From the NCBI GenBank assembly GCA_026387965.1, contig JAPLKR010000130.1, positions 1 to 13,934 on the forward strand: 13,934 bases of DNA. The letters run 5' to 3'. Origin of the DNA: Fusobacteriota bacterium. Lineage in GTDB: Bacteria; Fusobacteriota; Fusobacteriia; JAPLKR01. The notes under the pieces are model-generated. The model saw nothing but the letters and a program-made list of their open reading frames with translations, searched no databases and was not told the origin of the DNA. Positions 12,515 to 12,559 of the stretch are shown piece after piece. Position numbers and translations under genes: made by a program. Each line of letters begins with the position of its first letter. The stretch's first letter is position 1.

Positions 12515-12559
12515 ATAATAGCAAACTTCAATTATCAAATTAAGTGCAACTTAATTTGA
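12515..12559. repeat. 45-nt perfect palindrome, copy 2 (21-nt arms around GCA)
   Basis: ACTTCAATTATCAAATTAAGT gca ACTTAATTTGATAATTGAAGT. It lies ~50 nt beyond the stop of the IS30-family remnant, where that element's terminal IR would be expected. Confidence 0.6.

Follow-up and report, generated by a model that had tools for sequence, protein, structure and literature searches.

In circles and dimers of insertion sequences (IS), the terminal inverted repeats (IRs) meet in an IR–IR junction, where their tips abut across 2–3 bp (PMC9333248). In the junction of the E. coli IS30 minicircle and of the (IS30)2 dimer, two inverted terminal repeats lie a few base pairs apart, with their tips abutting and the bodies of the element extending outward. 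IS30-family relatives of the element described here are present on Firmicutes plasmids, namely E. faecium pVEF2 (WP_033603447.1), L. parabuchneri pFAM21731.2 (WP_004561985.1) and, as an unannotated copy, S. simulans CP095103. These elements share with our locus a nearly identical right end, GTTGCACTTAATTTGA(C/T)AATTGAAG, an IR of 26–28 bp with the tip (A)CTT(G/C)AATT and the inner part AAGTGCAAC, and a transposase which finishes in ...LHLI* within the repeat, with F-N codons just upstream. Inverted repeats at the border of an IS30-type element are also a feature of IS1630 of Mycoplasma fermentans, which, to go by the title of Calcutt's 1999 paper, reportedly targets and duplicates inverted repeats. 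The repeats of IS1630 are duplicated target DNA outside the element, whereas the palindrome described below lies inside. Finally, quasi-palindrome template switching (Ripley model, studied in E. coli) makes an imperfect palindrome perfect and mirrors changes between its arms.

The window analysed here is the whole of a 13,934-bp contig from a Fusobacteriota metagenome-assembled genome (MAG), in which the product of pepA (MCX5774667.1) is truncated. It contains two copies of a palindrome, numbered 1 and 2 from left to right. Our analysis suggests, with a probability of roughly 80%, that copy 2 forms the final 45 bp of an IS30-family insertion sequence, now dead, on the minus strand. In contrast to the E. 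coli IS30 junction, its tips point outward, its inner ends abut and one of its arms is coding, and it is not a transposition intermediate. The features on which the argument is built are given below, together with the evidence for each; P0001 and P0243 are transposases from the same MAG and L169 is a syntenic contig of a related organism.

12525–12569, no strand: perfect 45-bp palindrome (copy 2); inverted-repeat search, arm shuffles, DNA and RNA folding
12525–12550, minus strand: right terminal inverted repeat (IRR, 26 bp), ACTTCAATTATCAAATTAAGTGCAAC outside-in; alignment to annotated IS30-family elements
12549–12569, minus strand: inner arm, an inverted copy of IR positions 1–21, in the transposase frame as D-F-N-Y-Q-I-K codons; tblastn of P0001
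12535–12786, minus strand: 3' remnant (~84 codons) of an IS30-family transposase pseudogene; tblastn of P0001 and comparison with P0243
10482–10523, minus strand: copy 1, what is left of a second IS30-family insertion in the same orientation, namely its right end alone; repeat searches, folding, pairwise comparison
12252–12504, no strand: ancestral intergenic DNA between the two insertions; 73% identical to L169:9345–9595
11200–11559, plus strand: C-terminal remnant (rve domain) of an IS3-family transposase, between two diverged tandem genes for small secreted proteins

The two arms of copy 2, ACTTCAATTATCAAATTAAGT (12525–12545) and ACTTAATTTGATAATTGAAGT (12549–12569), are 21 nt long each, 100% complementary and separated by a GCA spacer. 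The first-pass annotation had correctly recognized the perfect palindrome with its 21-nt arms around GCA and had placed it at 12515–12559, while its true site is 10 nt to the right. In 200 shuffles of the window the arm was never encountered (expected matches 0.00). As single-stranded DNA copy 2 folds with an energy of −19.6 kcal/mol (z = −11.8), and a 96-nt RNA containing it on the transposase strand folds with −34.8 kcal/mol (z = −7.9). The hairpin of this RNA consists of the perfect 21-bp stem and a few further wobble pairs, and the stop codon is enclosed in it.

The reading frame called beside copy 2 (12610–12798, minus strand) encodes the C-terminal part of an IS30-family transposase, with 3419 IS30-family matches in the protein search, and the sequence of the remnant matches plasmid regions annotated as 'IS30 family transposase'. 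The closest database protein is P0001 (MCX5774131.1), which runs beyond the stop called in the window as ...ATQLNNRPRKILNYKTPQEIFWADFNCQIKLHLI. A tblastn search of the window with P0001 gives just one alignment, free of gaps, in frame −3 (12747–12538) with 62/70 identities. A single in-frame stop in this alignment stands opposite a Lys of P0001, and the alignment ends with FNYQIKLHLI at 12567–12538, after which a TGA follows. Because P0001 reads through in one frame, the called stop at 12610–12612 is a nonsense mutation and the gene originally ended within the palindrome, at the TGA of 12535–12537. P0243 (MCX5773098.1, 131 aa, same accession block), with the C-terminus ...FWADLNCQIKLHLI, gives the same picture. 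Both intact copies share the tail ...FWAD(F/L)NCQIKLHLI and read on to ...FWADFNCQIKLHLI, where the window encodes ...FWADFNYQIKLHLI; in the tail comparison, ...EEISKILEIDYYF of P0243 stands against MTNFKILEIDYYF of the window. Homology of the window to P0243 begins only near 12786, which shows that the remnant is truncated on its 5' side.

The palindrome therefore holds the last 11 codons of the transposase and its stop codon. The inner arm codes for D-F-N-Y-Q-I-K (DFNCQIK in P0001 and DLNCQIK in P0243), and the spacer and outer arm for L-H-L-I-stop, leaving 10 bases up to the edge. It had been thought that the IS30 stop was ~50 nt away from the palindrome, that the palindrome sat just outside the remnant and that GAAAACTTCATGGGG was a terminus of the element. 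None of this can be maintained, since the palindrome is within the element and spanned by its reading frame, and GAAAACTTCATGGGG is what the P-H-E-V-F codons of the transposase give on the opposite strand. The annotation needs to be corrected accordingly: the transposase pseudogene reaches 12535, not 12610. Scanning of protein databases and metagenomes for closer relatives yielded at most ~72% identity outside the MAG itself over the C-terminal region searched, and neither an element sharing the tail nor a full-length copy of the element itself. Exact-protein look-ups for P0001, P0243, a third protein of the MAG named P0121, and the 62-, 162- and 170-aa ORFs of the window matched no DNA.

The outer arm, together with the spacer and 2 nt, corresponds to the right terminal repeat of known elements. 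It is identical in 24/25 positions to the annotated IS30-family IRR of pVEF2 and in 24/26 to the IRR of L175, the annotated 329-aa element of pFAM21731.2, both of whose 28-bp IRs (ACTTGAATTTACACTTTAAGTGCAACAC on the left and ACTTGAATTGTCAAATTAAGTGCAACAC on the right) match. Identity to the IRs of the metagenomic element L097 (26-bp IRL/IRR pair ACTTGAATTCAACTCTTAAGTGCAAC / ACTTGAATTCAAGTAGTAAGTGCAAC) is 19/26, and the 26-bp length, the tip ACTT and the inner TTAAGTGCAAC are common to both. The full-length relatives L097 and L175 have the IR tip ACTTGAATT and the inner TTAAGTGCAAC. Matches to annotated elements come from plasmids of Enterococcus, Lentilactobacillus and Staphylococcus, and the impression of the first-pass annotation that the arms resemble IS30-family termini is confirmed. 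A blastn search of plasmids with positions 12520–12600 matched 161 records, many of them under the annotation 'IS30 family transposase'. Among the matches listed (~55 of 161) only the outer arm and centre are covered (query 7–31 to 7–48), and none of the 161 records covers 80% of the query.

The right end of pVEF2 reads ...EVFFNESLHLI*, GTTGCACTTAATTTGACAATTGAAG and then unrelated DNA. The S. simulans plasmid copy reads FNDKVLHLI* and has the same end as pVEF2, and the Lentilactobacillus-type right end recurs in two prophage-region contigs. The right ends of pVEF2, S. simulans, L176 and L177 follow the outer arm base for base and diverge straight after ...TTGAAG. In our alignment of the ends (A1), GTTGCACTT-AATTTGA(Y)AATTGAAG is essentially invariant in the relatives and in both window copies, and similarity ends there; on their left sides, copies 1 and 2 likewise have unrelated flanks as far as AACTTC. 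Because the homology in A1 and the likeness of the two copies both end at the outer edge, 12525–12550 is the 26-bp IRR with its tip outermost. The tip is placed at 12525 (±1, that is, 12524–12526), as the relatives finish in ...AAG and both window copies have AACTTC. The polarity of the repeat is thus defined by the tip at the outer edge (ACTTCAATT...) and by the conserved inner motif GTGCAAC, the AAGTGCAAC end of the repeat, at the centre of the palindrome. The stop codon is located 10 nt from the tip, within the terminal repeat. In an intact element, the IRR would be bound at its inner GTGCAAC part and cut at its tip by the IS30-type DDE transposase. The object is of a known kind, an IS30-family terminal repeat with the gene end within it, and its lineage-specific twist is uncommon.

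Copy 1 differs from copy 2 by an additional T in the left arm and by two substitutions per arm (4 positions and the indel). These differences had been described earlier as one 1-nt indel and a few substitutions, which holds, at 10481–10522, which has to be moved to 10482–10523. The IRR of copy 1 is complete save for the extra T, and its inner arm retains 17/21 nt, the last 4 nt of the right arm being GGGA where copy 2 has AAGT; the copy measures 42 bp in all and folds with z = −6.4. Its minus strand reads N*QIKLHL in the tblastn search with P0001, no transposase sequence follows beyond it, and its flanks (ATA and GGG) form no direct repeat. An independent Logan assembly (L004, SRR20698640) contains 8955–10632, including copy 1, at 100% identity. 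Because both copies have the asymmetric GTGCAAC centre on the plus strand, they are direct repeats of each other.

Comparison with L169 reveals how the two copies came to lie in the same region. From NfeD through DUF2608 and on to pepA, the genes of L169 are in the same order, pepA being 84% identical, and 710 bp separate DUF2608 from pepA. In L169, 54 bp take the place of 9972–12251 of the window, and the L169 sequence from 9916 onwards is homologous to the window from 12894 onwards. Because L169 keeps the homologue of 12252–12504 and is without the block 9972–12251, the window contains two separate inserted blocks. The left one (9972–12251) carries a NUDIX fragment, copy 1, two diverged tandem secreted-protein genes and the IS3-family remnant, and the right one (12505–12893) carries copy 2 and the IS30 remnant. 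The copies are located in separate blocks, and copy 1 is therefore the relic of a second IS30-family insertion, that is, the solo right end of another insertion of the same element family which has lost its body by deletion. The right arm of copy 1 falls 4 nt short of the tip, and no simple transposase-mediated event accounts for that. Both copies in this window are inert scars of dead elements. The first-pass annotation had taken them for footprints of insertion events, and rightly so, as both are IS30-family right ends. The DUF2608–pepA intergenic region of this Fusobacteriota MAG has been struck at least two times by the same IS family.

The substitutions between the copies are paired. ATTATC/GATAAT in copy 2 stands against ATTGAC/GTCAAT in copy 1, so that two adjacent pairs are altered on both arms, and there are 0 uncompensated substitutions in the 17 shared pairs. 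This count comes from two sequences only; it was matched in 131/500 shuffles and is not significant alone. The Cys codon (TGT) of P0001 implies an intermediate ATTGTC, one step from either copy, and its complement GACAAT is the sequence present in the IRRs of the relatives. The covariation is suggestive of copying from arm to arm or of selection.

The inner arm was seen in 0 of the ~135 other IS30-family right ends compared. A long palindrome across the ORF end or stop occurred in none of the ~50 loci from viral contigs and none of the 80 from metagenomes, and the few high palindrome scores among these IS30 loci were all well outside the element. Unlike the window, the Firmicutes-plasmid elements lack both an inner arm and a significant hairpin; the relatives with the most similar ends do not surpass shuffled sequence in folding (z = −0.3, +1.5 and −0.25, versus −11.8 here). 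We found no IS30-family element with a palindromic IRR described in the literature. In the relatives, the conserved F-N codons, TT(C/T)AAT, are located 6–9 nt ahead of TTGCAC and can pair with ATTGAA near the tip, and the S. simulans end forms a weak two-segment quasi-palindrome. The window lineage, in contrast, has a 12-nt gap, TATCAAATTAAG, between the F-N codons and TTGCAC. These ~12 nt are complementary to the IRR and, together with the upstream GAC codon, make the inner arm its exact complement, resulting in the perfect palindrome with a 21-bp stem. Judged by this comparison of ends, the inverted copy of the terminal repeat which makes up the inner arm is specific to the lineage. Such an arrangement, an IR and its inverted copy as a perfect palindrome within the transposase frame, is new with respect to the ~135 other IS30-family ends.

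The perfect arms most likely originated by quasi-palindrome template switching. The weak quasi-palindrome of the relatives would represent the precursor state, and fold-back copying at it during replication would have filled in ~12 nt and produced the perfect stem. Template switching would also account for the compensated differences between copies 1 and 2. The likeness to the cases behind the Ripley model lies in the perfected palindrome and the mirrored arm changes, and the difference in that here a ~12-nt insertion in a coding region is reconstructed from comparative sequence alone. Copy 2 is a clean natural candidate for such an event at the end of a mobile element.

In the intact element, the transposase mRNA would carry a hairpin with a 21-bp stem at its 3' end, across the stop codon, and the palindrome would give the DNA end the potential to form a cruciform. 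It is possible that the hairpin plays a role in stabilisation or termination of the transcript or modulates recognition of the end. One may go further and suppose that the inverted duplicate of the repeat was selected and its complementarity maintained, either as a hairpin or cruciform controlling transposase expression or end choice, or as a second usable end. We consider this rather unlikely, and the neutral template-switch account is sufficient without any function of the hairpin. Were the palindrome functional, an element of the copy-out/paste-in type would have gained a novel means of regulating or fragmenting its end. Were the inner arm a second usable end, the transposase could shed or move the 45-bp tip, and both the solo copy 1 and the divergence of P0121 described below would then be accounted for.

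A related explanation is that the palindrome is a 45-bp mini-element with two ends, which the transposase could excise and move alone, leaving solo copies in some places and copies without a right end in others. Copy 1 indeed stands solo, and the two arms agree perfectly over the terminal 21 bp, tip included. Moreover, P0121 (MCX5774250.1, same MAG) matches the window remnant through ...VLNYKTPHEVFWAD (...EVFWAD) and then diverges, precisely at the codon where the inner arm begins, and copy 1 also breaks at most 4 nt from that boundary. However, the inner arm read as an end gives ...AAGTTGCAC and not ...AAGTGCAAC, so that the conserved inner motif is broken, and copy 1 has neither a flanking direct repeat nor its inner tip. 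A 45-bp duplex is also unable to form a circular intermediate of the IS30 type, as is well established (PMC9333248). The 19-mer core of the palindrome is absent from the viral contigs and has only 3 matches in 185,579 representative genomes (a set evidently without the source MAG), all by chance and none palindromic. Instead of the many dispersed solo copies with target-site duplications that characterize MITE-like elements, there is one solo copy, with its inner tip truncated. We therefore regard a mini-element as improbable. The breaks in P0121 and copy 1 are compatible with a deletion provoked by the palindrome or with the inner-arm tip serving as a pseudo-end.

It had also been proposed that the palindrome is an insertion hot spot of the kind IS30 favours, which is nearly palindromic. 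Another form of target DNA would be an inverted repeat duplicated upon insertion as by IS1630, which produces target duplications of 19–26 bp; the two copies would then be the duplicated target, and their direct orientation fits. However, the IS30 remnant does not lie between the copies but outside them, the copies are not identical (4 positions and the indel), and syntenic L169 has no palindrome at either site. The IRR of the element itself, its last 11 codons and its stop are contained in the palindrome, with the reading frame running through it. Because the palindrome lies inside the element, we reject the target reading and give it very little weight.

Equally small is the likelihood that the palindrome belongs to the host, as an operator for a dimeric regulator or as the intrinsic terminator of a neighbouring gene. 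The dyad symmetry is perfect, copy 1 is located 3' of the gene at 10588–11076, and a lenient scan flags copy 2 as terminator-like on the minus strand, where TTTGCTATTAT comes next. The first-pass annotation had denied a T-tract to both copies, which is correct for the plus strand and has to be qualified for this minus strand of copy 2. However, only 4 of the 21 stem pairs are G–C, and the T-rich tail depends on a chance flank of copy 2 and is missing at copy 1, which the scan does not flag. L169 has no counterpart, Rfam gave 0 matches in the window, the island or the L169 intergenic region, a tRNA search found none, and an IS end explains the sequence base for base.

Least credible of all is the junction of an IS circle or tandem dimer, with two element ends head-to-head over a 3-bp spacer as first proposed, for although such IR–IR junctions do form in IS30-type elements (PMC9333248) and the centre, ...AAGT GCA ACTT..., looks like two ACTT tips, this likeness is superficial because the IR itself is weakly self-complementary (ACTT...AAGT); read from the centre outward the arm agrees with the family IR in ~14/25 positions (by eye) and has no GTGCAAC, against 24/26 with the motif from outside in, homology to the relatives stops at the outer edge and not at the centre, the inner arm runs in frame into the transposase coding sequence, and with its tips at the outer edges and GTGCAAC central the palindrome is therefore excluded as a junction.

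Several minor observations were made around the IS30-family right ends. The left inserted block contains a tandem duplication of ~630 bp (10527–11157 and 11553–12188, 84–92% identical), each unit of which codes for a small protein on the minus strand, of 162 aa (10588–11076) and 170 aa (11595–12107), with a signal-peptide-like N-terminus and no Pfam match. The possibility that these proteins are homologues of the tandem small proteins of L169 was examined and rejected, as they are not homologous. The IS3-family remnant (11200–11559) separates the units, and the repeat starts 7 nt ahead of the stop codon of this remnant. The right end of the IS3 element may have been kept in unit A, beside copy 1. 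The repeat at 10527–10589 beside copy 1 may be either 5' sequence of an IS30 element or this IS3 right end; IS3 relatives on plasmids are at most 55% identical, and the IS3 IRR is not definable from them.

The NUDIX-hydrolase fragment (10139–10288) is 36% identical to residues 13–67 of a NUDIX protein which is encoded 5 kb away in L169. Beyond it comes a G+C-rich hairpin, TAATACCCCTC...GAGGGGTATTA, at 10360–10392, just upstream of copy 1. These features point to a mosaic origin of the left inserted block, from rearranged pieces of the chromosome.

The ancestral stretch between the insertions (12252–12504) contains the DnaA-box-like motif TTTTCCACA at 12255 and 12333 and the inverted TGTGGAAAT near 12359, and similar boxes are present in L169. 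In the whole window 3 such motifs are observed versus 0.53 expected, a number reached in 3/200 shuffles and not significant alone, and no dnaA gene is located near 12252–12504. To go by these motifs, the stretch could be a DnaA-titrating or regulatory site, or the promoter region of pepA. Upstream of pepA, L169 has a G+C-richer stretch of 320 bp (9596–9915) with several inverted repeats and no Rfam match; in the window this stretch is missing, and the IS30 remnant occupies its place.

Two further differences from L169 are located elsewhere in the window. The gene for a TauE/SafE exporter is intact in L169 (268 aa, 5962–6768), and the corresponding region of the window (7344–7652) lacks ~406 bp (L169:6024–6429) and is cut to an 88-aa ORF (7386–7652); the gene is probably a pseudogene. 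A MazG-like gene (103 aa) is present between rpiB and a HIT-family gene at L169:4504–4815, and the window has only ~120 bp there (6015–6135).

A solo IS30-family terminal repeat also occurs elsewhere. On Listeria innocua pLI100 (L172:2496–2560) such a repeat, CTTAAATTATCAAATTAAGTGCAAC, is located ~20 bp from an IS1216 terminal repeat, GGTTCTGTTGCAAAGTTT. The same solo end is present in ~60 Listeria plasmids and is widely conserved in plasmids of Listeria and Enterococcus; it is an IS30-family end left by later IS activity.
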